In this document: piece after piece, positions 3,232 through 56,326 of the stretch
How positions within the stretch are numbered: the first letter of the stretch is position 1
Layout of the letters: every line of letters starts with the position of its first letter
Assembly (NCBI GenBank): GCA_002453155.1
Contig: DKGG01000011.1
Span: 32,190 to 96,189, forward strand
Direction: 5' to 3'
Origin: Bdellovibrionaceae bacterium UBA6776
GTDB lineage: Bacteria > Bdellovibrionota > Bdellovibrionia > Bdellovibrionales > UBA1609
DNA: 64,000 bases
The notes under the pieces: generated by a model
Databases searched by the model: none
Seen by the model: only the letters and a program-made list of their open reading frames with translations
Told to the model about the DNA's origin: nothing
Position numbers and translations under genes: made by a program

Positions 3232-4857
3232 ATGATTCATTTTTCAAATGTGACCAAAAATTATGGCAATAAGGTCCTTTACAAGGGCGCGAACTTTCAA
3301 CTGAATGCGGGCGAGAAGGTGGGACTTGTTGGACCCAACGGGGCGGGTAAGACCACTATCTTCCGATTAATTGTGGGTGAAGAGCGTCCCGATGACGGCC
3401 AAGTGGTCTACCCGGACAAGGTTCGCGTGGGTTACTTTTCGCAAAACCTCGAAGACATGAGCGGACGTACGGTGATTGACGAGGTCAAATCTGCAGCTGG
3501 AGATTTGATGGAAATCGAAGCTCGGCTGCCAGAGCTTGAAAAGAAAATGTGCGAGCCTTTAGATGAAGACGAAATGGCCCAAGTTCTTGAGGAATACGGT
3601 CACCTGCAAAGTGAGTTTGAGAGCAAAGGGGGATATGAACTTTCCTCGAAAGCGGCCGAAATCATCACGGGTCTTGGCTTTCCTCCAGAGTTTCACTTGC
3701 GTCCCACGGAAAGTTTCAGTGGGGGATGGAAGATGCGAATTGCATTGGCGAAAATCCTACTGATCAATCCTGATGTGCTTTTAATGGATGAACCTACGAA
3801 CCATTTGGATTTGGAATCGATCATTTGGTTGGAATCTTGGATCAACCAGTATGAAGGTGCTTTGTTGATGACAAGCCATGATCGGGAATTCATGAACCGC
3901 TTAGTGACAAAGATCGTCGAGGTGGCCCATCAAACCGTGACGGTCTATGGAGGCAATTACGACTTTTATGTGCGCGAAAGCGAAGTCCGTCGCGAGCAAT
4001 TGATCGCTGCAGCCAAACGTCAGGAAGAAATGCTGGCCAAGGAAGAAGAATTTATTGCGCGGTTTGCGGCTCGAGCTTCTCATGCGGCGCAAGTTCAGTC
4101 GCGGGTAAAGAAGATCGAAAAGATTGATCGCATTGAGGTTCCTCAGGAAGAACGGGCCATTCAGTTTGTCTGGCCAGAGCCACCACGAAGTGGGGACGAG
4201 GTTTTTAAATTTAAAGATCTCAAAAAGTCCTACGCTTTAGAAGATGGAAAAGAACTTCCGGTGTTTTCAAATTTAACAGGAACGGTCAAAAGGTTGGATC
4301 GAATTGCCGTGACCGGAGTCAACGGAGCCGGAAAATCCACGCTTTTAAAAATCATTACCGGGCAAATTGACCCTTCTGATGGTGAAGGGCAGCTGGGAGC
4401 CAGTGTGCTATTGGGCTATTTCAGTCAAAACTCTTTGGATCTGCTCGACAAAGACAAAACCATTTTGGAAGAGCTGCAAAGTCGCTTTCCCACTCAAAAT
4501 TTAGGATATTTGCGAAACTTGCTCGGGGCTTTTAAGTTTTCAGGAGATGAAGTGGACAAAAAGATCTCGGTGCTCTCCGGAGGAGAAAAAAGTCGTGTGG
4601 TCCTCGCCACCATCTTGGCAAAGCCAGTAAACTTTTTGGTTCTGGATGAACCTACCAACCATTTGGACATTCAATCTCGAGAGGTTTTGTTGGATGCCAT
4701 CAATGAATTTCCAGGAACAGTGATGATCGTAAGCCATGATCGGCACTTTTTAAGACATGTGACCAATCGTGTGTTCCATTTGGATCATCATGAACTTCAT
4801 ATTTACGACGGAACTTGGGATGAATATCAGCGCAAACTCGAAAGCCTAGCTCAATAA
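3232..4857 (+). CDS. ABC-F family ATPase (two tandem ABC domains, no TM domain)
   Basis: Two Walker A motifs (GPNGAGKTT, GVNGAGKST), two signature motifs (FSGGWKMR, LSGGEKSR), two Walker B motifs (LLMDEPTNHLD, LVLDEPTNHLD) and an inter-domain linker. Confidence 0.9.
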   Translation: MIHFSNVTKNYGNKVLYKGANFQLNAGEKVGLVGPNGAGKTTIFRLIVGEERPDDGQVVYPDKVRVGYFSQNLEDMSGRTVIDEVKSAAGDLMEIEARLPELEKKMCEPLDEDEMAQVLEEYGHLQSEFESKGGYELSSKAAEIITGLGFPPEFHLRPTESFSGGWKMRIALAKILLINPDVLLMDEPTNHLDLESIIWLESWINQYEGALLMTSHDREFMNRLVTKIVEVAHQTVTVYGGNYDFYVRESEVRREQLIAAAKRQEEMLAKEEEFIARFAARASHAAQVQSRVKKIEKIDRIEVPQEERAIQFVWPEPPRSGDEVFKFKDLKKSYALEDGKELPVFSNLTGTVKRLDRIAVTGVNGAGKSTLLKIITGQIDPSDGEGQLGASVLLGYFSQNSLDLLDKDKTILEELQSRFPTQNLGYLRNLLGAFKFSGDEVDKKISVLSGGEKSRVVLATILAKPVNFLVLDEPTNHLDIQSREVLLDAINEFPGTVMIVSHDRHFLRHVTNRVFHLDHHELHIYDGTWDEYQRKLESLAQ

Positions 4858-7921: not shown

Positions 7922-8040
7922 CAGATTCGGTGGGGCAGTAAGGTATTGATATTAAATTGGAAATCAGACAGGATTTAAGGCCAATTTGTTTCAATTTAAG
8001 CCGTTCCAATTTTGAATGAGAATTGGAAGATGGGGGAGAC

Positions 8041-8601
8041 ATGAAGATACAGTGCAATTGCGGGCAATTCGAAGCGGAGCTGACAAACTTTCCCAAGAAT
8101 TCACCCGGTCGGCTGATGTGCTACTGCGACGATTGCCAAAAGCTTTTAAACAAAATCAACCGGGCAGATCTTTTGGACTCTTATGGTGGAACCGAAGTCA
8201 TTCCCGTTTATCCGGATGAGTTTCAAATTTTAAAAGGCCAGGAGTTTCTTCGGTGCAATCGTTTAAGCAAGAATGGAATAAATCGATGGACAGCGAATTG
8301 TTGCAATTCTCCCATCGGAAACACTCGAGCCAAATTTCCTTGGTTTGGAATCTTTCACAGTGCCTTTACGGTGAAAGACAAATCTTACCTGGAAAATTTA
8401 GGACCTGTTCGCAGTCGAATCATGGGAAAGTATGCAAAGGGAAATCCGCCATTTAAGATTCCAGATAAAATTGGCGTGGGCGACGTTATGGTCGTGGCCC
8501 CATTTTTAATGAAAGGAATGCTTTTTAAAAAATACAAGAATTCTCCGTTTTTCAAAGAAGACGGTGTGACCCCAATCTCCGAACCCGTGATTTTGAGGTA
8601 G
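8041..8601 (+). CDS. Cys-rich GFA/CENP-V-like (DUF6151-like) protein
   Basis: Cys pattern IQCNCGQFE..MCYCDDCQ..WTANCCNSPIG is typical of the GFA zinc-binding fold. Confidence 0.6.
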   Translation: MKIQCNCGQFEAELTNFPKNSPGRLMCYCDDCQKLLNKINRADLLDSYGGTEVIPVYPDEFQILKGQEFLRCNRLSKNGINRWTANCCNSPIGNTRAKFPWFGIFHSAFTVKDKSYLENLGPVRSRIMGKYAKGNPPFKIPDKIGVGDVMVVAPFLMKGMLFKKYKNSPFFKEDGVTPISEPVILR

Positions 8602-8619
8602 AACGGTGAAATCTAAGTG

Positions 8620-8931
8620 TCAAAGCCCCTTGGCATTTTTTAGCAACTGAACCAGGTCTTTGAGTTGGACGTTCGATTCCAGTGGGTGGCGAAGAGTTTT
8701 CTTCGAAACGATTTTATAGCGATTGGATCGGCCAATCTTTTCTCTTTTGACATAACCCGCGTCTTCCAAGTCTTGAATGATTCCCAAAACAGAGCGCTCG
8801 GTGATTCCAACTTTTAGCGCGATTTCTCGAACGACCAGATTTTCATTTGCTGCCAAAAGAAAATACACGTGTCCGTGGTTGCTAAAAAATGTCCAGTTGA
8901 TCTCATCGTGATTCGCCACACACCCTCCCAT
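8620..8931 (-). CDS. Winged-helix (ArsR/MarR-like) transcriptional regulator
   Basis: VREIALKVGITERSVLGIIQDLEDAGYVKREKIGRSNRYKI. I chose the ATG at 8931. Confidence 0.7.
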   Translation of the reverse strand: MGGCVANHDEINWTFFSNHGHVYFLLAANENLVVREIALKVGITERSVLGIIQDLEDAGYVKREKIGRSNRYKIVSKKTLRHPLESNVQLKDLVQLLKNAKGL

Positions 8932-8947
8932 TGACTCTAAGTTACTG

Positions 8948-9017
8948 AAAATGCATGAAAAAATATATCTGAAATATAATACATGAAATAAAATGCATGA
9001 ATTATATTGCATGCAAT
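8948..9017. promoter_or_regulatory. Cluster of ATGCATGAA-type motifs, a candidate operator array
   Basis: Identical 12-mers AAAATGCATGAA at 8948-8959 and 8990-9001 (42 bp apart); TAATACATGAAA at 8977-8988; 12-bp palindrome ATTGCATGCAAT at 9006-9017. Confidence 0.35.
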
Positions 9018-9053
9018 GGGGTGGGCTGATAGAGTGGTTTTAAAGGAGAAACG

Positions 9054-10547
9054 ATGGAATTCACTGGGTACTTTTTGCCGGCACTTATACTTTTTCCTAT
9101 TTTAATCAATAGGTTAGCTAAACATTTCCCACGGCTCCTCTTGAGCCCAGTTTTGCTCTTAAGCCCCATCATCTTTGTCTATTTGACCGGCTTCAGTTTC
9201 TACCTTCATGAGCCCATAGAACTCACTCTCTATCAGTTCTCGACTTATTTTTCCCTGGGCGTGAGATTGGATGTTCTCTCGGGTTTGATCGCGATGACAG
9301 TTTCAACAATTGGAGCCGTAGTTGTCCGGTATTCTGTCAGATACCTAGAGGACGATCCTAAACGAATTCAATTCCAGAGGAATCTGTCATATACATTGAG
9401 TTTTGTTCTCTTCATGCTGATGTCCCCGAATTTGTTACTCTTTTTTGCAGCCTGGACGGGAACCTCTTACTTTTTACATCAGCTCCTCACACATTTTTCT
9501 CAAAGAGACGGAGCCCTTCGGGCCGCCCGCCAAAAATTCTGGGTCAGTCGCTTGGGCGATGTCTTTATTCTTTCTTCTGGTGCTGTGCTGTTCTTTGTTT
9601 TTAAAAGTTTAGAATTCCAGACACTGTTCTTGGCCGTTAAAAATCCGACCATCCTGGCAGAAAATGCATTTCTAATTAATCTTGCATCACTACTCCTCGT
9701 TTTTGGAGCGATGACGAAATCAGCTCAATTTCCATTTCACTATTGGTTGCCAAGGACGATGGAAACACCGACTCCAGTATCTGCGATCATGCACGCAGGA
9801 ATTATCAATGCCGGAGGATATCTCGTCATTCGCATGAGTCCAATCTTGGCCACAACTCCGGTCGCACTTTCTGTTTTGGCACTTGTCGGTGGGTTTACTG
9901 CATTCTTTGGGACATTGGTTATGTTTGCTCAAACCAATGTGAAAAAAAGTTTAGCCTATTCCACAATTGCTCAAATGGGCTTTATGATGCTTCAATGTGG
10001 ACTTGGCGCATTTTCCATAGCGACAGTACACATTGTTGGCCACGCCTTTTACAAGGCTTATGCTTTTTTAAGTTCGGGAACGGCCACAGACTTTGGAAAG
10101 TTGAATCGGTATTTCCCAAAAGTAAATTCCGAAAGCCCCTTTGGAATCGTCTTGATTCTAGGGTTATCTTCAGTTGCCTTCTTTTGGGGAACTCTCCACT
10201 ACTTAAACTCGAACATATTGAATGAATCTGGAGTTGCCATTCTTCTTTTGGTTCTCGCCTTGGCCGGTTCGCAAATCATCATAAATTCTAAAAAAAACAT
10301 AGACGGAGTTTCCATGGTGATCCTGATTGCTGGTCTTTATATTGGTCTTTCTGCAAGCGTTAAATTTCTACTTGGTGGAAGTGTTGCCGCGCAAGTCGCT
10401 GGAGAGGGATTGCTTCGAAATTCCACCTTTGCAATTTGCGCGTCCTTATTTGTCGGACTCTATTTCATTCAGAATAGCCTCGATAAAATTTCAGCCACTA
10501 AGATCGGAAAAAGAGTCTATGTCCGCGCATTGAAAGGAGGCTTCTAG
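9054..10547 (+). CDS. dabB: DabB: proton-conducting membrane subunit (NuoL/MrpA-like, PF00361) of a DAB inorganic-carbon pump
   Basis: Polytopic protein containing KSAQFPFHYWLP..ETPTPVSAIMHAG..NAGGYL, typical of PF00361. Its stop overlaps the start of a DUF2309 gene. Confidence 0.8.
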   Translation: MEFTGYFLPALILFPILINRLAKHFPRLLLSPVLLLSPIIFVYLTGFSFYLHEPIELTLYQFSTYFSLGVRLDVLSGLIAMTVSTIGAVVVRYSVRYLEDDPKRIQFQRNLSYTLSFVLFMLMSPNLLLFFAAWTGTSYFLHQLLTHFSQRDGALRAARQKFWVSRLGDVFILSSGAVLFFVFKSLEFQTLFLAVKNPTILAENAFLINLASLLLVFGAMTKSAQFPFHYWLPRTMETPTPVSAIMHAGIINAGGYLVIRMSPILATTPVALSVLALVGGFTAFFGTLVMFAQTNVKKSLAYSTIAQMGFMMLQCGLGAFSIATVHIVGHAFYKAYAFLSSGTATDFGKLNRYFPKVNSESPFGIVLILGLSSVAFFWGTLHYLNSNILNESGVAILLLVLALAGSQIIINSKKNIDGVSMVILIAGLYIGLSASVKFLLGGSVAAQVAGEGLLRNSTFAICASLFVGLYFIQNSLDKISATKIGKRVYVRALKGGF

Positions 10548-51730: not shown

Positions 51731-51921
51731 GCATTCAACATCAAATTCGTGCCTTTGCAGGAACCTTTGTATTAGCGAGTTTGGCTTTGGCCCATTATCA
51801 TTCGGAATATTGGCTGTTCTTTACAGCCTTTGTTGGATTCAATTTGTTGCAGTCCAGCTTCACAAATTTTTGCCCCTTGGAAATGATTTTAAGAAAGCTA
51901 CAGCCCGCGAAAGTAAATTGA
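51727..51921 (+). CDS. DUF2892 (YgaP C-terminal-like) two-TM protein
   Basis: IRAFAGTFVLASL..FVGFNLLQSSFTNFCP; ATGA overlap with the RND stop. Confidence 0.75.
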   Translation: MSIQHQIRAFAGTFVLASLALAHYHSEYWLFFTAFVGFNLLQSSFTNFCPLEMILRKLQPAKVN

Positions 51922-51945
51922 TTTTTTTCAAGTGGTTTAAAGTTT

Positions 51946-51972
51946 AGGGATCTGTTCCGTATACAGATCCCT
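51946..51972 (+). terminator. Terminator-like hairpin
   Basis: 10-bp stem AGGGATCTGT/ACAGATCCCT with a 7-nt loop; only a weak T tract follows. Confidence 0.45.
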
Positions 51973-52004
51973 GAATTTCTGAGGTTCTATGGTCTCCTCT
52001 AGTA

Positions 52005-52072
52005 AATACACCCATCCATGGCCTCACAAGAATTTTCCTTTCAGGAAAATCGCCTCTTGTTTCCATGAGGTC
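52005..52072 (+). repeat. Foldback-repeat family, copy 0 (core only)
   Basis: CCCATCCATGG..TTTTCC-TTTCA-GGAAAATCGC..GAGGTC. Confidence 0.75.
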
Positions 52073-52084
52073 TATTCCTGTGTG

Positions 52085-52191
52085 TAAGTTGCTATTTCCC
52101 AAATCCATATTTCATAGAACCGGACACACTCATCCATGAGTTCTTCCAGCATTTGCCTTTCAGGCAAAGCGCATCCCGCTTGGTAGAGGTC
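52085..52191 (+). repeat. Foldback-repeat family, copy 1 (left arm + core)
   Basis: The arm at 52085-52119 matches the copy-2 arm at 30/35 positions. The core matches the copy-2 core apart from about 8 substitutions. Confidence 0.8.
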
Positions 52192-52203
52192 GGTTTCTGC
52201 GCA

Positions 52204-52348
52204 TAAGTTCTTACTTCTCAAATCCATATTTTATAGAAGCGGACACACTCATCCATGAGTTCTTCCAGCATTTGCCCTCCGGGCAAAACGCATCCTGCTT
52301 GCTGGAGGTCCTTTTCTATAAAATATGGATTTGAGAAGTAAGAACTTA
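52204..52348 (+). repeat. Foldback-repeat family, copy 2 (complete: 35-bp perfect inverted arms + 75-nt core)
   Basis: 52204-52238 is the exact reverse complement of 52314-52348. Confidence 0.9.
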
Positions 52349-52360
52349 CACACAGCAGGA

Positions 52361-53161
52361 TCAGCCTTTGTGGAGGTTGTGAGAGGCACACAATACTTGA
52401 AGGTTGTTCCTTCGCTGGTCGCCACCAAGTCTGACTGGAAAAATGTGATCGATTTGTAAGAACTGTCGAGATTCGCAACCTGGATATTGGCATTTGTAGT
52501 CCGCTGTCGTTAACACATCATTTCGCAGGCGCTTGGAAATTTGACGGGGATTCTTTGATTTTGGTGCACAAAACTCTTTTGTCTCAGTGGGTTTTGGAGA
52601 TTTCCTCTGAATGTTTTCATAAGATTTGAGTTCTTTTTCAATCAAGTCCATCAATAGGCTTTCCGCATTGTGCTTATGAGACTTCAGTGCTTTCAATCTC
52701 TCTAATTTTTCATGCTGTTCATGGGACAGCTCCAGTCTCAAATGCACTTTGTCTAAATACTCGGTCTTTTTGATCTTTATGGTCGGTGTGGGTTTCAAAA
52801 ACATGGCCTTTACTTCACGAGAAGATTTATTTTCCATAGACTTCAAAACTTTTCTTTTTTCCGCCACCGGCTTTTTTCGAAGATGCTTGAAAGCAGTGGT
52901 CACTGCAGACAGGGTCAGGCTTCCCTGATCAATTTTCTGTTTGATCTCAGGAACTTCCTTGGCCAAGCGGACACAGGCTTGTCTTTGGTAGGCAGTGGCC
53001 TCGGAGTATCCAAGTCCGCGAACCAAGTAATCGAAAAGAGAATGGTGACCCATCTCTAGATACTTTCTGCAGTTTTCCATTTCTTGAAGCTTATTTAGAA
53101 TTTCAGAAGTGATTCGTTTTTCTTTCTGGCGCAGCTCTAGAAGCTCATCGTGAATTTTCAT
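52361..53161 (-). CDS. HNH endonuclease with a DUF222-like helical N-terminal region
   Basis: C-terminal CQYPGCESRQFLQIDHIFPVRLGGDQRRNNLQVLCASHNLHK (HNH motif). Confidence 0.85.
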   Translation of the reverse strand: MKIHDELLELRQKEKRITSEILNKLQEMENCRKYLEMGHHSLFDYLVRGLGYSEATAYQRQACVRLAKEVPEIKQKIDQGSLTLSAVTTAFKHLRKKPVAEKRKVLKSMENKSSREVKAMFLKPTPTIKIKKTEYLDKVHLRLELSHEQHEKLERLKALKSHKHNAESLLMDLIEKELKSYENIQRKSPKPTETKEFCAPKSKNPRQISKRLRNDVLTTADYKCQYPGCESRQFLQIDHIFPVRLGGDQRRNNLQVLCASHNLHKG

Positions 53162-53424
53162 AGGTCCTCTTTCTTTTGAAAGAACATTACCATGGGTTTT
53201 TATTTTCTAATTTTACGCCTTAGTTTTGTTTTTGAGGAAGCTTTTGCAGTCGAGAACATCCGTTCTTGGAGTTCAAATTTAACGAGTACAGTAAGCCCGA
53301 GAATTGTTTTAAAGATGATCCTACAAATGATTTCAATTTAACGATTCGCTTAAACGAAATCGAAAAAAACAACGTCAAACATAGTTTCTAAAAAGATTAA
53401 GTTTCGCCGCAACGTTTAGTAGGC

Positions 53425-54515
53425 AACTAAAACTTGAGTGTCCGTAACCAGTGCGACTCCTGCGGAATTGAAAAAGGGTCACCCCTGACCTATTAATCAA
53501 GTTCGCAAAAATTCAACTAAAAGGAGTTTGTACTATGGTTAAGTACTCAAGGGTGACTTACGAGCAAAGATGCCAGATCTACGTATTGTTGCAAGCAAAA
53601 ACCAAGGTTCTTGAAATTTCAAGGCTTGTTGGGGTTCACAAAAGTACAGTTTACAGGGAGTTGAGGCGAAATTCCTACGCGACTAAAAATCCATACTCAT
53701 CAGTACGGATGTATGAGCCCAATAAAGCTCATGCGATGGCTCGACGAAGGTTTTTAGATCGTTGTCATAGAAAACTGTCAGTTACAGGTCTTGTGGAGAC
53801 TCAGGTTATAAAGCTTTTGCAAAGGGGCTGGAGCCCTCAATTGATTGCCGGAAGAATAGGTCTTGAGACTCGCAAGAAGCTTTCTCATATGACGATCTAT
53901 CGGTTTACGAAAAAGAACGCTTATTTAAAAAGATACTTACATCACAAAGGTCGTAGATATCCCTACCGACCGACGAGCACCAATCAAGGTCCGAAGCCTA
54001 AGTGGTGGCGCTCTGTGCACGAGAGGCCCTTGGCTTGTCAGGAGAGATCTGAGCTTGGACACTGGGAGCGAGATTTGATGTATGCAAAAGATAGAGCTCC
54101 GATATTAGTCTGTACAGATCGAAAATCGAGATATGTAACATGCTTAGAGTTGAACACTTCAGGTTCACAGGAAACGCAAGAGAAGACAGCGATTTTGCTA
54201 AAACCATTTCCTGTTCACTCAGTGACCAATGATCAAGGAAGTGAATTTAAATCCAGAAATCCCATGGGGTGCCCCGTTTACTTTTGTGATCCCAGAGCAC
54301 CTAATCAAAGAGGTACGGTTGAGAACACAATAGGTGTGATGAGGCGATTTATAAAAAACTCCACAGATCTTAGTGAAGTGAACTTAGAACAAATTGAAAT
54401 ATGGATGAACTTGAGGCCTCGCAAGGTCCTTGACTACAAAACACCCTATGAGGTTATGTTCGAAGAATCAGTCGCACTGGTTGTGTGAAACTAAGAAACT
54501 TGAGTGTCCGTAACC
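53425..54515 (+). mobile_element. IS30-family insertion sequence (outer limits given; minimal element 53446-54482)
   Basis: 13-bp terminal inverted repeat AACCAGTGCGACT (53446-53458) / AGTCGCACTGGTT (54470-54482). A roughly 25-bp direct repeat AACTAA(G)AAACTTGAGTGTCCGTAACC lies at 53425-53449 and 54489-54515. Confidence 0.7.
53535..54488 (+). CDS. IS30-family DDE transposase
   Basis: N-terminal HTH (RCQIYVLLQAK..ISRLVGVHKSTVYRELRRN); catalytic motifs GHWERDLM, TNDQGSEF, QRGTVENTIG. Confidence 0.9.
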   Translation: MVKYSRVTYEQRCQIYVLLQAKTKVLEISRLVGVHKSTVYRELRRNSYATKNPYSSVRMYEPNKAHAMARRRFLDRCHRKLSVTGLVETQVIKLLQRGWSPQLIAGRIGLETRKKLSHMTIYRFTKKNAYLKRYLHHKGRRYPYRPTSTNQGPKPKWWRSVHERPLACQERSELGHWERDLMYAKDRAPILVCTDRKSRYVTCLELNTSGSQETQEKTAILLKPFPVHSVTNDQGSEFKSRNPMGCPVYFCDPRAPNQRGTVENTIGVMRRFIKNSTDLSEVNLEQIEIWMNLRPRKVLDYKTPYEVMFEESVALVV

Positions 54516-54564
54516 CGCACGCTTCGTTTGCCACCCCTCTTTCGAGGGTCAGGTTTCGAGTGTT

Positions 54565-54688
54565 TTTTCAAGATCTAAAACCCATAATTCCTGACCCGAC
54601 CGTCCATAGACTCACCATCGTTTTCCTTTCAGGAAAATCGCATCCTGCTCGATTGAGGTCTGTCACTATGGATTTTAGATCTTGAAAA
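54565..54688 (+). repeat. Foldback-repeat family, copy C (22-bp arms with 1 mismatch, 80-nt centre)
   Basis: Arms TTTTCAAGATCTAAAACCCATA / TATGGATTTTAGATCTTGAAAA; core CCGTCCATAG..TTTTCCTTTCAGGAAAATCGCATCCTGCT..GAGGTC. Confidence 0.8.
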
Positions 54689-54773
54689 TAGACATCCATG
54701 AAACTTCTGTTCAAAAAAAATATAGGCGCCTATAAAAGTGATGCTTTTGAAATGTTTCGGGGGATTCTGCTAT

Positions 54774-54889
54774 CAAGTTCAACGATCCACAGAATAGGAT
54801 CTCCGGCAAGCAGGATGCGTTTTGCCGAAGTGCAAATGCCGGAAGAGTTCATGGATGAACGTATCCTATTCTGTGGATCGTTGAACTTG
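54774..54889 (-). repeat. Foldback-repeat family, copy B (27-bp perfect arms, 62-nt core in inverted orientation)
   Basis: 54774-54800 is the exact reverse complement of 54863-54889. The reverse complement of the centre reads TTCATCCATGAACTCTTCCGGCATTTGCACTTCGGCAAAACGCATCCTGCTTGCCGGAG. Confidence 0.85.
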
Positions 54890-54920
54890 AAAGTAAGCTT
54901 CCTCGAAATCTAATGCTTGT

Positions 54921-54944
54921 GAGCCCATGGATGGGCGTGTTTAC
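54921..54944 (-). repeat. Partial repeat: inverted copy of the 5' end of copy 0
   Basis: The reverse complement GTAAACACGCCCATCCATGGGCTC matches 52001-52024 (GTAAATACACCCATCCATGGCCTC) at 21/24 positions. Confidence 0.6.
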
Positions 54945-54990
54945 TTGAAGTGATTGTTAACCTGAAAAATTTGCTGTAGATGAGGAAAGA

Positions 54991-55028
54991 ACCCATGGAT
55001 GTCAGAGTCCAGCACGATTGAGGTCTAC
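54991..55028 (+). repeat. Partial repeat fragment (CCATGGATG + CGATTGAGGTCT)
   Basis: CGATTGAGGTCT is identical to the 3' end of the copy C core. Confidence 0.5.
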
Positions 55029-55099
55029 TAAAGTAAATCTTCTTCCTTCAAAGAGCTACAGAAATAAAACTAGAAAGAAACTCGACCAAATTCCACCAA

Positions 55100-56326
55100 T
55101 CAGTCTTGAAGCATCCGGTGGTGAAAACGTTTTTCTAGGGAAAGAATAAAAATGCAAATCAAACTGGCGCCGCCAAAACTCAATACCAAGGGGAGAATGC
55201 TCTCGTGATAGTACTTCCCAAGGAAAATTCCAATGGCCACAGATATTGTGCTTTGAACAAACCCAATCAAGGCAGACCCCACTCCGGCCACATGGCCTAA
55301 GGGCTCCATGGCCAGGGCGTTTAAATTCCCGAACAAAAATCCCACCGAAAAGAAAGTCAAAATCATATAGATCATAAAAACCATCAAAGGAGGTGGAGTC
55401 GAGGGAAGGTAATTGGTTAAATAGAGTGCAAAAAGATTAGAGATCAATGCCATCCACAAAAAAGCCCCAAGAATCAAACGCCGCATACCTAAAGCCATCA
55501 CCAGGCGGGAGTTGAAAAAAGAAGCCCCACCAATGGAAAGCGCTAGAATCCCAAACATCAGAGGAAAGAGCTTCTCCATATGAAAAATTCGCGAGAAAAT
55601 TTCTTGAGCAGAGCCCAGGTAACCCACAAAGATTCCAAATAAAATTCCCGAAACAATCATGCAAGAAACCGTCGTAGGTTGTCGAAAAGTCTCTTTAACT
55701 CCAAAAACTAACTGCTTGGCGGTGAACCCTCTTCTTAATCCCGGCGGTAGAGTTTCATGTTGGCGAATTGCAAACCACGCCCATAAACTCAAGGCGACCA
55801 CACACAAAAGAATAAAAATGGCTCTCCAATGAAAGAAATAAATCACTCCCTGACCCAGAGTGGGAGCCAATGCCGGCACCAAAATGAAAATGGTCATCAC
55901 CATAGAGGTGATCTGTGCCATCGCGTTCCCTTTGTACTCATCCCGAATCAATGCCAACGAAATGATTCGAGGAGCTGCTCCTCCAAAACCTTGAAGGAAT
56001 CGGCCGATGAGAAACCACTCAAAACTTTGAGTCATTCCCGCCAGAACGGAACCCATGGCAAAAATCGCAACGCCCCAATAGATGGGTGGCTTTCGGCCGA
56101 AGATGTCTGAAAGCTGACCAAAAATCAGCTGTCCAAATCCAAAACCCAAAAACAAAATGGCAATGACCATTTGCAATTGATCGGGTGTTTGAAGTCGAAA
56201 GTCTCTATGAATGGCGTTGAATGCAGGGAGCATGCTGTCAATGGACAGGGCAATCAATGATGTCATCAGCGCCATCAGAGTTACAAACTCGGGACGCGAC
56301 AATTTGGTGGGCGAATTCTGAGTCAA
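55100..56326 (-). CDS. MFS transporter, Bcr/CflA-like drug efflux
   Basis: 12 TM helices; N-terminal LIALSIDSMLPAF and GQL.DIFGRKP motifs. Confidence 0.9.
   Translation of the reverse strand: MTQNSPTKLSRPEFVTLMALMTSLIALSIDSMLPAFNAIHRDFRLQTPDQLQMVIAILFLGFGFGQLIFGQLSDIFGRKPPIYWGVAIFAMGSVLAGMTQSFEWFLIGRFLQGFGGAAPRIISLALIRDEYKGNAMAQITSMVMTIFILVPALAPTLGQGVIYFFHWRAIFILLCVVALSLWAWFAIRQHETLPPGLRRGFTAKQLVFGVKETFRQPTTVSCMIVSGILFGIFVGYLGSAQEIFSRIFHMEKLFPLMFGILALSIGGASFFNSRLVMALGMRRLILGAFLWMALISNLFALYLTNYLPSTPPPLMVFMIYMILTFFSVGFLFGNLNALAMEPLGHVAGVGSALIGFVQSTISVAIGIFLGKYYHESILPLVLSFGGASLICIFILSLEKRFHHRMLQD

Follow-up and report, generated by a model that had tools for sequence, protein, structure and literature searches.

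A branched, covarying palindromic element accompanies a multicopy HNH nuclease gene in an uncultured Bdellovibrionaceae bacterium

What is conserved in the repeats that lie on both sides of a small HNH endonuclease gene of Bdellovibrionaceae bacterium UBA6776, and what might they do for that gene? The window, a stretch of 64,000 nucleotides from contig DKGG01000011.1 (positions 32,190 to 96,189 of the forward strand), holds five copies of the repeated element, three in tandem at 52001-52334 and two at 54573-54885, and a 266-aa HNH gene and an IS30-family insertion sequence (IS) lie between the two clusters. As an imperfect palindrome of about 113-160 nt, the element can form a branched hairpin of five helices. 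A first-pass annotation had read base changes in two stems of the repeat as compensatory, and so as a sign of selection on secondary structure, be it of RNA or of single-stranded DNA, and not of repeat decay. This reading holds, as strong covariation is found in all helices across 71 distinct copies, and pairing has been preserved through many independent compensatory changes. We regard the structural claim as solid, and the association of the element with the HNH gene likewise. The element matches no described RNA or repeat family and is tied to a gene for a nuclease related to the DUF222-HNH proteins.

Copies beyond the window were sought with the scan pattern AAANCGCATCCYGCNNNNNNGAGRTC, which consists of the conserved unpaired block and parts of two 3' half-stems. 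The pattern leaves the covarying columns unconstrained and fixes some unpaired and 3'-strand positions; for the first 43 copies it fixes the unpaired CGCATCCYGC block, three A's and GAGRTC, so that their conservation there is by construction. In a one-genome-per-species collection the 22 pattern matches were about the number expected by chance, and one of them is real, locus L021 from a Bdellovibrionales metagenome-assembled genome (MAG). A viral collection scanned with the core pattern gave one match, by chance. In a metagenome collection 61 loci matched, of which about 40 are genuine, with marine (Tara) assemblies as the source of almost all. From 43 distinct copies a covariance model was built, which gave 93 matches on the collected loci, representing 75 distinct sequences, many of them without the scan pattern, and the final covariation set comprised 71 distinct copies. 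Over the whole 64-kb window the model found zero copies away from the single HNH gene.

The fold is numbered along a plain MAFFT alignment (A2) that is unfitted to structure. The outer arms, P0, pair columns 3-17 with 93-107, and inside them a GGA/TCC helix pairs columns 20-22 with 88-90. The 5' hairpin, H1 (columns 26-30 with 35-39), has the loop (A/T)TCC(A/T)T, in which TCC is invariant. The H2 stem (columns 41-49 with 79-87) encloses H3 (columns 50-56 with 60-66), which is the inner hairpin of the first-pass annotation, together with H4, a mini-hairpin of two pairs and the loop ATCCT inside a supposed 12-nt bulge, ACGCATCCTGCT. The five-helix fold with its long outer arms, 5' hairpin and mini-hairpin goes beyond what had been noted before, as do the link to a multicopy HNH gene and the statistics on orientation and mismatches, which point to DNA.

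Part of the check that had been proposed for the first reading was carried out, namely aligning and folding the collected copies and building a covariance model. Among 43 distinct copies aligned with MAFFT, 87.6% of cells were paired, against 74.2% after shuffling (0/500) and 34-50% with slid partners, and both sides had changed in 24 of 39 pairs. RNAalifold, run independently, returned the same helices plus the two pairs of H4. With 71 copies, 87% of cells were paired against 71% after shuffling and 33-49% in the slid controls; kinship among sequences can inflate shuffle tests, and the slid-partner controls retain that kinship. Both-side changes were present in 31 of 41 pairs, H4 included (G-C in 53 copies, A-T in 13), and all five measures of covariation lay above 500 of 500 shuffles, including two that the null trials of the tool rarely exceed. 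The annotation had also named two ways in which its reading could fail, namely that covariation would disappear with more copies, or that the changes would come down to two subfamilies each inherited as a block, and neither was seen. The inner 5 bp of H2 occur in at least nine fully complementary versions (CAGCA/TGCTG, CCGCA/TGCGG, CGGCA/TGCCG, AATCA/TGATT, AATCG/CGATT, AAGAA/TTCTT, AAGCA/TGCTT, CTACA/TGTAG and CATTA/TAATG), and when base pairs are compared two at a time, 79 of 120 comparisons contain all four combinations of their two commonest states, which excludes an origin of the changes in two subfamilies inherited as blocks. There are 68 different pair-state combinations among 73 copies. 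The fold is kept even where the arms are unrelated, as in L021, whose 84-nt AT-rich arms are perfectly complementary (84/84), and in L083, an unrelated JGI metagenome contig, whose element (3236-3432) has 26-nt GC-rich arms that are also perfect (26/26). In L083 the helices H1, H2 (CTACA/TGTAG) and H4 are retained, as is the GAGGTCC motif, and H3 is lengthened by about 85 nt inserted at its apex.

Within the window, all of the stem and hairpin sequences quoted earlier are present. The range first given for them, 52005-52313, is right for copies 0 to 2 and does not extend to copies B and C, which lie 2.3-2.6 kb away, beyond the HNH gene. Copy 0 (52001-52076, plus strand) is a diverged core without arms, of the ACAAGAA/TCTTGT type, that scores 40.6 bits with the covariance model over model positions 17-93; its RNA fold has an energy of -18.9 kcal/mol (z = -3.5). 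Copy 1 (52103-52215, plus strand; 85.9 bits) is a core with a 5' arm only, and its outer stem is partly decayed, with TTGGTA where TGCTGG is expected. Copy 2 (52197-52355, plus strand; 128.7 bits at 52222-52334) is complete, a 159-nt palindrome in which 48-nt arms (52197-52244 and 52308-52355) that are 90% complementary surround the core. Its outer end lies 5 nt from the stop codon of the HNH gene, and when it is folded as DNA (-53.7 kcal/mol, z = -15) all five helices are reproduced. Copies 0 to 2 together make up a 119-bp tandem repeat of about 2.5 units at 52005-52355 (Tandem Repeats Finder score 361), each unit consisting of a core of about 70 nt and a 48-nt arm. On the far side of the gene, copy C (54573-54684, plus strand; 90.6 bits) belongs to the CAATCG/CGATTG subfamily and has 15-nt arms; its stem carries one disrupting A-to-C change, and the allele in the strain variant L001 has the perfect CAATCG/CGATTG stem. 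Copy B (54774-54885, minus strand; 108.6 bits) is complete, has arms of 20 nt and runs opposite to copies 1 and 2; by blastn it is 83% identical to copy 2 on the opposite strand.

The compensatory changes are already visible among these five copies. The inner hairpin is TTTTCC/GGAAAA in copies 0 (52033-52049) and C (54621-54637), TTTGCC/GGCAAA in copies 1 and 2 (52152-52168 and 52271-52287), and TTTGC/GCAAA in copy B (minus strand, about 54795-54872). The outer stem is CTTCCAGCA/TGCTGGAGG in copy 2 and CTTCCGGCA/TGCCGGAG in copy B, while in copy 0 it is ACAAGA/TCTTGT plus CCTCA/TGAGG and in copy C ATCG/CGAT plus CTCA/TGAG. Beyond copy B, decayed element fragments at 54912-55020 (minus strand; CCCATGGATGGG at about 54923-54936 and GATTGAGGTC near 55015) were recognised by reading the sequence and by blastn, in which they align weakly with the 5' end of copy 0, and they score under the covariance-model threshold.

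The element keeps close company with the HNH gene. Searching with the HNH protein of the window by tblastn, homologues of 67-93% amino acid identity were found to adjoin element clusters in more than 20 loci. The nearest element typically lies 29-34 nt past the stop codon on one side and 283-350 nt ahead of the start codon on the other. Where a cluster has at least 1.6 kb of sequence on both sides, an HNH gene lies within 1.6 kb in 9 of 10 cases, the exception being the solo element of L021. There are one to five elements per side of the gene, in arrays upstream or downstream and in either orientation, and the elements abut each other. At several loci they build inverted or direct repeats of about 300 nt that bracket the gene, and in the window copies 2 and B form an inverted outer pair. 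In L051 (7672-9784) a perfect 39-nt inverted repeat brackets the gene and a 307-nt inverted repeat (89%) with elements lies outside it. In another case the cassette sits between 302-nt direct repeats that are 96.4% identical, each of them an element pair (L054 6645-6946 and L053 858-1159); these two contigs are taken as contiguous because an intact 266-aa open reading frame spans their junction. The solo element of L021 (2882-3122) lies where a cyoE-like and a DUF4197 gene converge, at the apex of an 84-nt inverted repeat without mismatches. Its left arm overlaps the last 9 nt of cyoE, and the perfection of the arms suggests recent copying of one arm from the other.

The unit around the gene has further conserved parts. 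An alignment of 11 paralog upstream regions defines a conserved 5' region (53162-53449 in the window, minus strand) that consists of a leader with a ribosome-binding site and a distal block. The distal block contains CTACTAAACGTTGCGGC, which lies at 53406-53423 and is present on the plus strand as its reverse complement, and in L039 and L051 the CTACTAAACGTTGCGGC block recurs inverted downstream of the gene, where it forms the 39-nt perfect repeat of L051. Downstream of HNH paralogs, element cores differ at 2-9 of 75 positions (3-12%) and arms at 3-14 of 38. Compared with synonymous sites of the adjoining gene the core is about ten times tighter, and it thus appears to be constrained far beyond neutral sites, or else continually homogenised. 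The possibility that the cassette is inserted inside a core, with occupied and empty sites, was rejected, as the cassette abuts the outer arm ends; a search for an empty site by way of the MFS neighbour returned only the same context. The idea, raised by the cyoE overlap in L021, that arms are copies of local host DNA was rejected for the marine copies, in which 48-nt arms are homologous across loci.

The protein beside the element, encoded at 52361-53161 on the minus strand, has a helical N-terminal domain and a Pfam HNH domain at residues 224-265. There are 205 homologues, which the source databases list as hypothetical proteins from MAGs of Bdellovibrionaceae or Bdellovibrionales. Several paralogs are found per MAG, and one MAG accounts for the locus tags of at least five. 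Synonymous divergence (dS) among paralogs is 0.8-2.2 and the ratio of nonsynonymous to synonymous divergence (dN/dS) 0.06-0.14, values that point to old, functional genes under purifying selection. The C-terminal HNH domain (PF01844), the only part that Pfam sees, is matched in 22 of 22 members, with D238, H239, N253, H261 and N262 invariant. NCBIfam gives weak matches, far below cut-off, to the HNH parts of IscB (E = 7.6e-8) and Cas9d (E = 2.7e-5), and the IscB model, whose cut-off is 175 bits, covers residues 207-265 only and scores 31.8 bits there. Pfam scans and a fold search found neither a RuvC nor a PLMP domain. The AlphaFold model (mean pLDDT 82.7) consists of a helical N-domain with a small beta-hairpin followed by HNH, and its fold matches in the PDB, namely a nicking HNH endonuclease of Geobacter, McrA and the Cas9 HNH, cover the HNH domain alone. 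A direct scan with Pfam DUF222 (PF02720) reached the gathering score in 0 of 22 members, the best having E = 0.037. The N-terminal 184 aa nevertheless led to 5577 clusters among 1.84 billion representative proteins, typically of 250-400 aa, and two of ten sampled distant N-domain matches pass the DUF222 threshold in the aligned region, both with a C-terminal HNH. Because relatives of the N-domain pass this threshold, the protein can be regarded as a short, divergent relative of the DUF222-HNH proteins, its distant relationship to these nucleases being traced through intermediates.

Does the element work as DNA or as RNA? At equivalent positions with respect to the HNH gene the element is found in either orientation, and in a tally of non-redundant loci the nearest downstream element is opposite to the gene in six and in the same orientation in four, while the nearest upstream element is opposite in four and the same in six. 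Mixed orientation favours DNA, as the loops of an RNA would read differently whereas both strands are open to a protein on DNA. A-C is much less tolerated than G-U in functional RNAs, and here the two kinds of mismatch are about equally frequent: in the core helices there are 40 G-T against 29 A-C when one fixed T-G is left out, and in the arms 53 against 72. A terminator-like site is present on none of the five model-defined copies, the sole one in the repeat region belonging to the decayed fragments at 54923-54936; the 3' arms continue into sequence such as GGATTTGAG, with no T-run after the hairpins. A promoter and terminator scan, which was itself judged uninformative, found no promoter-like signals at the elements. 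Rfam 15 at gathering thresholds gives zero matches over the whole window, with HEARO, ribozymes and small RNAs included, and with E up to 10 the region 51800-55300 yields only generic hairpin matches to microRNA models, far below threshold. No tRNA or tmRNA gene was found in the window. From the mixed orientation, the mismatch counts, the missing promoter-like and terminator-like signals and the structural matches of the HNH domain (a nicking HNH endonuclease, McrA and the Cas9 HNH) we infer that folded DNA, as a hairpin or a cruciform, is favoured over RNA. Recognition as plain duplex DNA is unlikely, since nine interchangeable stems would need nine matching proteins.

Two further features of the unit bear on its history. 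The IS30-family insertion sequence (53450-54496, plus strand; transposase 53535-54488, NCBIfam transpos_IS30, E = 1e-53) is flanked by a 19-bp direct repeat, AACTTGAGTGTCCGTAACC (53431-53449 and 54497-54515), and sits at the outer edge of the conserved 5' block. It is a later insertion into the HNH unit and stands outside the system. It was rejected as mobiliser of the unit because L001 lacks it, because its ends do not resemble the arms and because it is flanked by a 19-bp duplication of its own. A duplication of this length is unusual and recalls the IS1630-type members of the family. L001 has an identical HNH gene, and a comparison of its positions 8000-9700 with window 54685-55100 finds wholly different genes past copy C': a 354-aa protein, a hydrolase, a thiolase and RNase Y in L001, and MFS, PCC and MscS genes in the window. 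A rearrangement breakpoint therefore falls at the elements, and the L001 sequence past copy C' matches the window sequence past copy B.

How might such an element serve the gene? The reading we prefer, held tentatively and at slightly less than even confidence, is that the repeat is a structured cis-element of a selfish gene unit encoding a DUF222-HNH-related nuclease. The element would act as folded DNA, either as a hairpin on transiently single-stranded DNA or as an extruded cruciform, and the unit's own protein would read it through the two TCC-bearing loops. The HNH domain would nick or cut the folded element, and host repair or recombination among elements would then copy, move, invert or tandemly amplify the unit. 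The 119-bp tandem array at 52005-52355 could be one product of such recombination, and inversions, long flanking repeats and strain-level rearrangements like that of L001 could be further ones. A more specific form, which is possible though doubtful, makes the branched hairpin the DNA substrate of an unrecognised mobility or recombination mechanism in which a DUF222-HNH-type nuclease would read the three-way-junction fold at the ends of its own unit; in a rarer variant the hairpin would be the RNA partner of a minimal HNH-only nuclease. Several points weigh against our preferred reading. That the HNH protein binds or cuts the element is something that we purely infer, and the mechanism is hypothetical; HNH enzymes are not known as transposases. 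With a dS of about 1 the paralogs are old, and purifying selection acts on them, which does not fit an element that has newly begun to spread, and the flanking architecture is uneven, being direct, inverted or one-sided. L021 has no HNH gene within 3-5 kb of its element, and distant HNH loci (51-65% identity) are without the element or comparable palindromes. The copies come from uncultured populations, mostly of a few related marine lineages, and several loci end close to elements. Finally, 36 copies have one fixed T-G pair (CTTC/GAGG), as would be fitting for a single RNA strand, and a branched, asymmetric fold with conserved loops resembles structured RNAs.

These last two features lead to the alternative that the element is a structured non-coding RNA with the HNH protein as its partner, serving either as a scaffold or guide, as HEARO or omega-RNA does with IscB, or as a type III antidote made from tandem repeats. 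A multi-helix fold with extensive covariation is typical of functional RNAs, the linkage to the nuclease gene is strict, tandem arrays adjoin the gene, and the best, though weak, NCBIfam matches of the HNH domain are to IscB and Cas9d. We nevertheless consider this improbable, as the orientation relative to the gene varies, so that the loops would read differently, and G-U is not in excess over A-C. The variable parts are self-paired arms and there is no variable, guide-like single-stranded segment, the transcription signals were not found, Rfam including HEARO gives no match, and the protein has no RuvC or PLMP domain. It is similarly unlikely that the element is a REP/BIME-like palindrome, or one like a miniature inverted-repeat transposable element (MITE), with a life of its own or a host role such as a hairpin that ends or stabilises transcripts, and that the HNH cassette merely targets it as a landing site. 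Intergenic clusters in mixed orientation do recall BIMEs, and L021 provides a solo copy between convergent genes. The inner cassette of L051 has its own perfect 39-nt inverted repeats with the elements outside, the junction of cassette and element is at a fixed distance for any subfamily or orientation, and an element pair is directly duplicated over 302 nt around one cassette. However, the elements are not dispersed, with none elsewhere in the 64 kb and almost all clusters adjoining an HNH gene, and for a terminator or stabiliser the arms would be enough, without need of a conserved branched core whose loops are invariant and whose divergence is 3-12%. No T-run follows the hairpins.

An explanation without any selection on folding is very unlikely. 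Complementarity of the arms might be kept by gene conversion in palindromes, or by identical half-sites that co-evolve with a protein, and the compensations would then be a by-product. The long arms are indeed sometimes perfect, as in L021 and L083, which would fit recent arm-to-arm copying, and the shuffle tests are open to inflation by kinship. Yet the internal stems of 5-7 bp lie between conserved unpaired blocks and covary independently, also of the arms, and the two-pair mini-hairpin covaries too. At least nine stem versions would need as many co-evolved proteins, and the slid-partner controls, in which kinship is kept, fall to 33-49% paired.

Returning to the element as a folded DNA site of its own gene unit, it is useful to compare it with described systems. 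REP and REPIN sequences are single-stranded DNA hairpin repeats that occur in clusters and in tandem or inverted pairs, flank the RAYT nuclease gene and persist vertically (PMC3116915, PMC3337134). Like them, the present element is palindromic, can fold as a single-stranded DNA hairpin, is clustered and flanks the gene of the nuclease that is a candidate to act on it. REPs differ in being simple hairpins of 20-40 nt, dispersed in hundreds with one RAYT per family, whereas the element is a branched fold of 113-160 nt beside a multicopy gene whose enzyme is HNH and not HUH. The flanked gene carries only HNH, and no Y1 (RAYT) family was reported among the neighbouring genes listed. The ends of IS200/IS605 elements are short, simple subterminal hairpins, one per end, that act as folded single-stranded DNA with a Y1 HUH transposase. 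They resemble the element in being imperfect hairpins at the ends of a small unit, as would the proposed reading of folded DNA by the unit's own nuclease; they differ from its multiple branched copies and HNH enzyme. The attC sites of integrons are imperfect palindromes of 57-141 nt with conserved structure, read as folded single strands with extrahelical features, and they separate cassettes. The element is likewise an imperfect palindrome defined by structure and not by sequence, but it is conserved at its centre and not in R and L boxes at its ends, its copies abut without cassettes, and their orientation is mixed. No integron integrase is present among the called neighbour genes at these loci. 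The outer ends of attC carry R''/R' boxes (RYYYAAC ... GTTRRRY); GTTCAAC ... GTTGAAC happens to flank copy B, and the other copies have unrelated ends, such as CTGTGTGTAAG ... CTTACACACAG in copy 2. By analogy, the element would function most like REP/REPIN-RAYT or the hairpin ends of IS200/IS605, with an attC-like definition by structure, and it stands outside these groups because its enzyme, size, branched fold and non-dispersed distribution differ.

On the side of the gene, a close parallel is REP13E12 of M. tuberculosis, with a DUF222-type N-domain and a C-terminal HNH (PMC10589994, citing Gordon et al. 1999). The two have in common a repeated unit of about 1.3-1.4 kb around a DUF222-type/HNH gene, several diverged copies in each genome and the lack of a known mobility mechanism; the differences are the host phylum and the protein, which is shorter here (266 aa) and fails the DUF222 model directly. 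Structured flanking palindromes are not reported for REP13E12 in the literature found, the REP13E12 loci themselves not having been examined, and no account was found there of a mechanism for the spread or target of DUF222-HNH genes. Literature on DUF222 plus HNH, IshB, REPIN/RAYT, Bdellovibrio repeats and REP13E12, with most subscription journals outside the search, contains no description of the element. HEARO or omega-RNA (IscB, RF02033) shares the combination of a structured element with an HNH nuclease reading frame and many module copies per genome. Unlike it, the element has no covariance-model match, fixed orientation or guide segment, it lies on both sides of the gene, and the protein is without RuvC and PLMP.

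Three further classes do not fit. As for a MITE of the resident IS, the arms are unrelated to the IS30 ends of the window (AACCAGTGCGACT / AGTCGCACTGGTT) and there is no consistent short duplication at the arm ends. An intrinsic terminator is not supported, as a GC-rich hairpin with a T-run is found on none of the five model-defined copies. In a type III toxin-antitoxin system of the ToxIN kind, a tandem array with a period of about 36 nt stands immediately upstream of an endoribonuclease toxin gene and in line with it; here the period is about 118 nt, the arrays lie on either side and in either orientation, and the partner has an HNH domain of DNase type.

Other repeats were seen near these units. 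Between copies C and B lies the palindrome TATAGGCGCCTATA (54721-54734, without strand), a motif that also occurs between element pairs in L058 and L059/L076. As the GC-cored palindrome TATAGGCGCCTA(TA) it lies in the spacer of convergent element pairs in the window (54721-54734), L058 (154-165) and L059 (607-620). Distant HNH loci carry other tandem repeats in place of the element: TATAGGCGCCTA(TA) is repeated in 74-nt tandem arrays (L097 4164-4324, L098 4187-4490) beside HNH genes of 65% identity that are without the element, and about 30 degenerate repeats of 14-16 nt, GTCGCTTCGCATTTTA, lie upstream of the 65%-identical gene in L098 (1462-1969). HNH units may share the TATAGGCGCCTA(TA) palindrome as a second cis-site, such as an operator. 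The whole region is bordered by an RND efflux operon and a YgaP-like gene (to 51921) on one side and by an MFS transporter gene (55100-56326, minus strand) on the other. Directly after the YgaP-like gene there is a 16-nt inverted repeat at 51940-51978 (AAGTTTAGGGATCTGT / ACAGATCCCTGAATTT), which is probably the terminator of the efflux operon and lies outside the repeat family. Far from these features, at 8950-9017, the window has a 14-nt tandem repeat, AATGCATGAAATAT, with 4.9 copies and 73% matches.

DUF222-HNH genes are very common and form repeated units in bacteria such as M. tuberculosis. In one branch of them both flanks here bear a folded element that is clearly delimited and strongly constrained, which provides a testable pair of protein and nucleic-acid substrate. 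If the element is a substrate for mobility, it would be the first mechanistic handle on the widespread selfish genes of the DUF222-HNH or REP13E12 type; if it is RNA, it would represent a new nuclease-RNA module. The case also illustrates that a DNA element, as this one probably is, can show textbook covariation, which matters for the automated discovery of non-coding RNAs. The element may be the missing cis-acting partner of a widespread and unexplained family of selfish nuclease genes.

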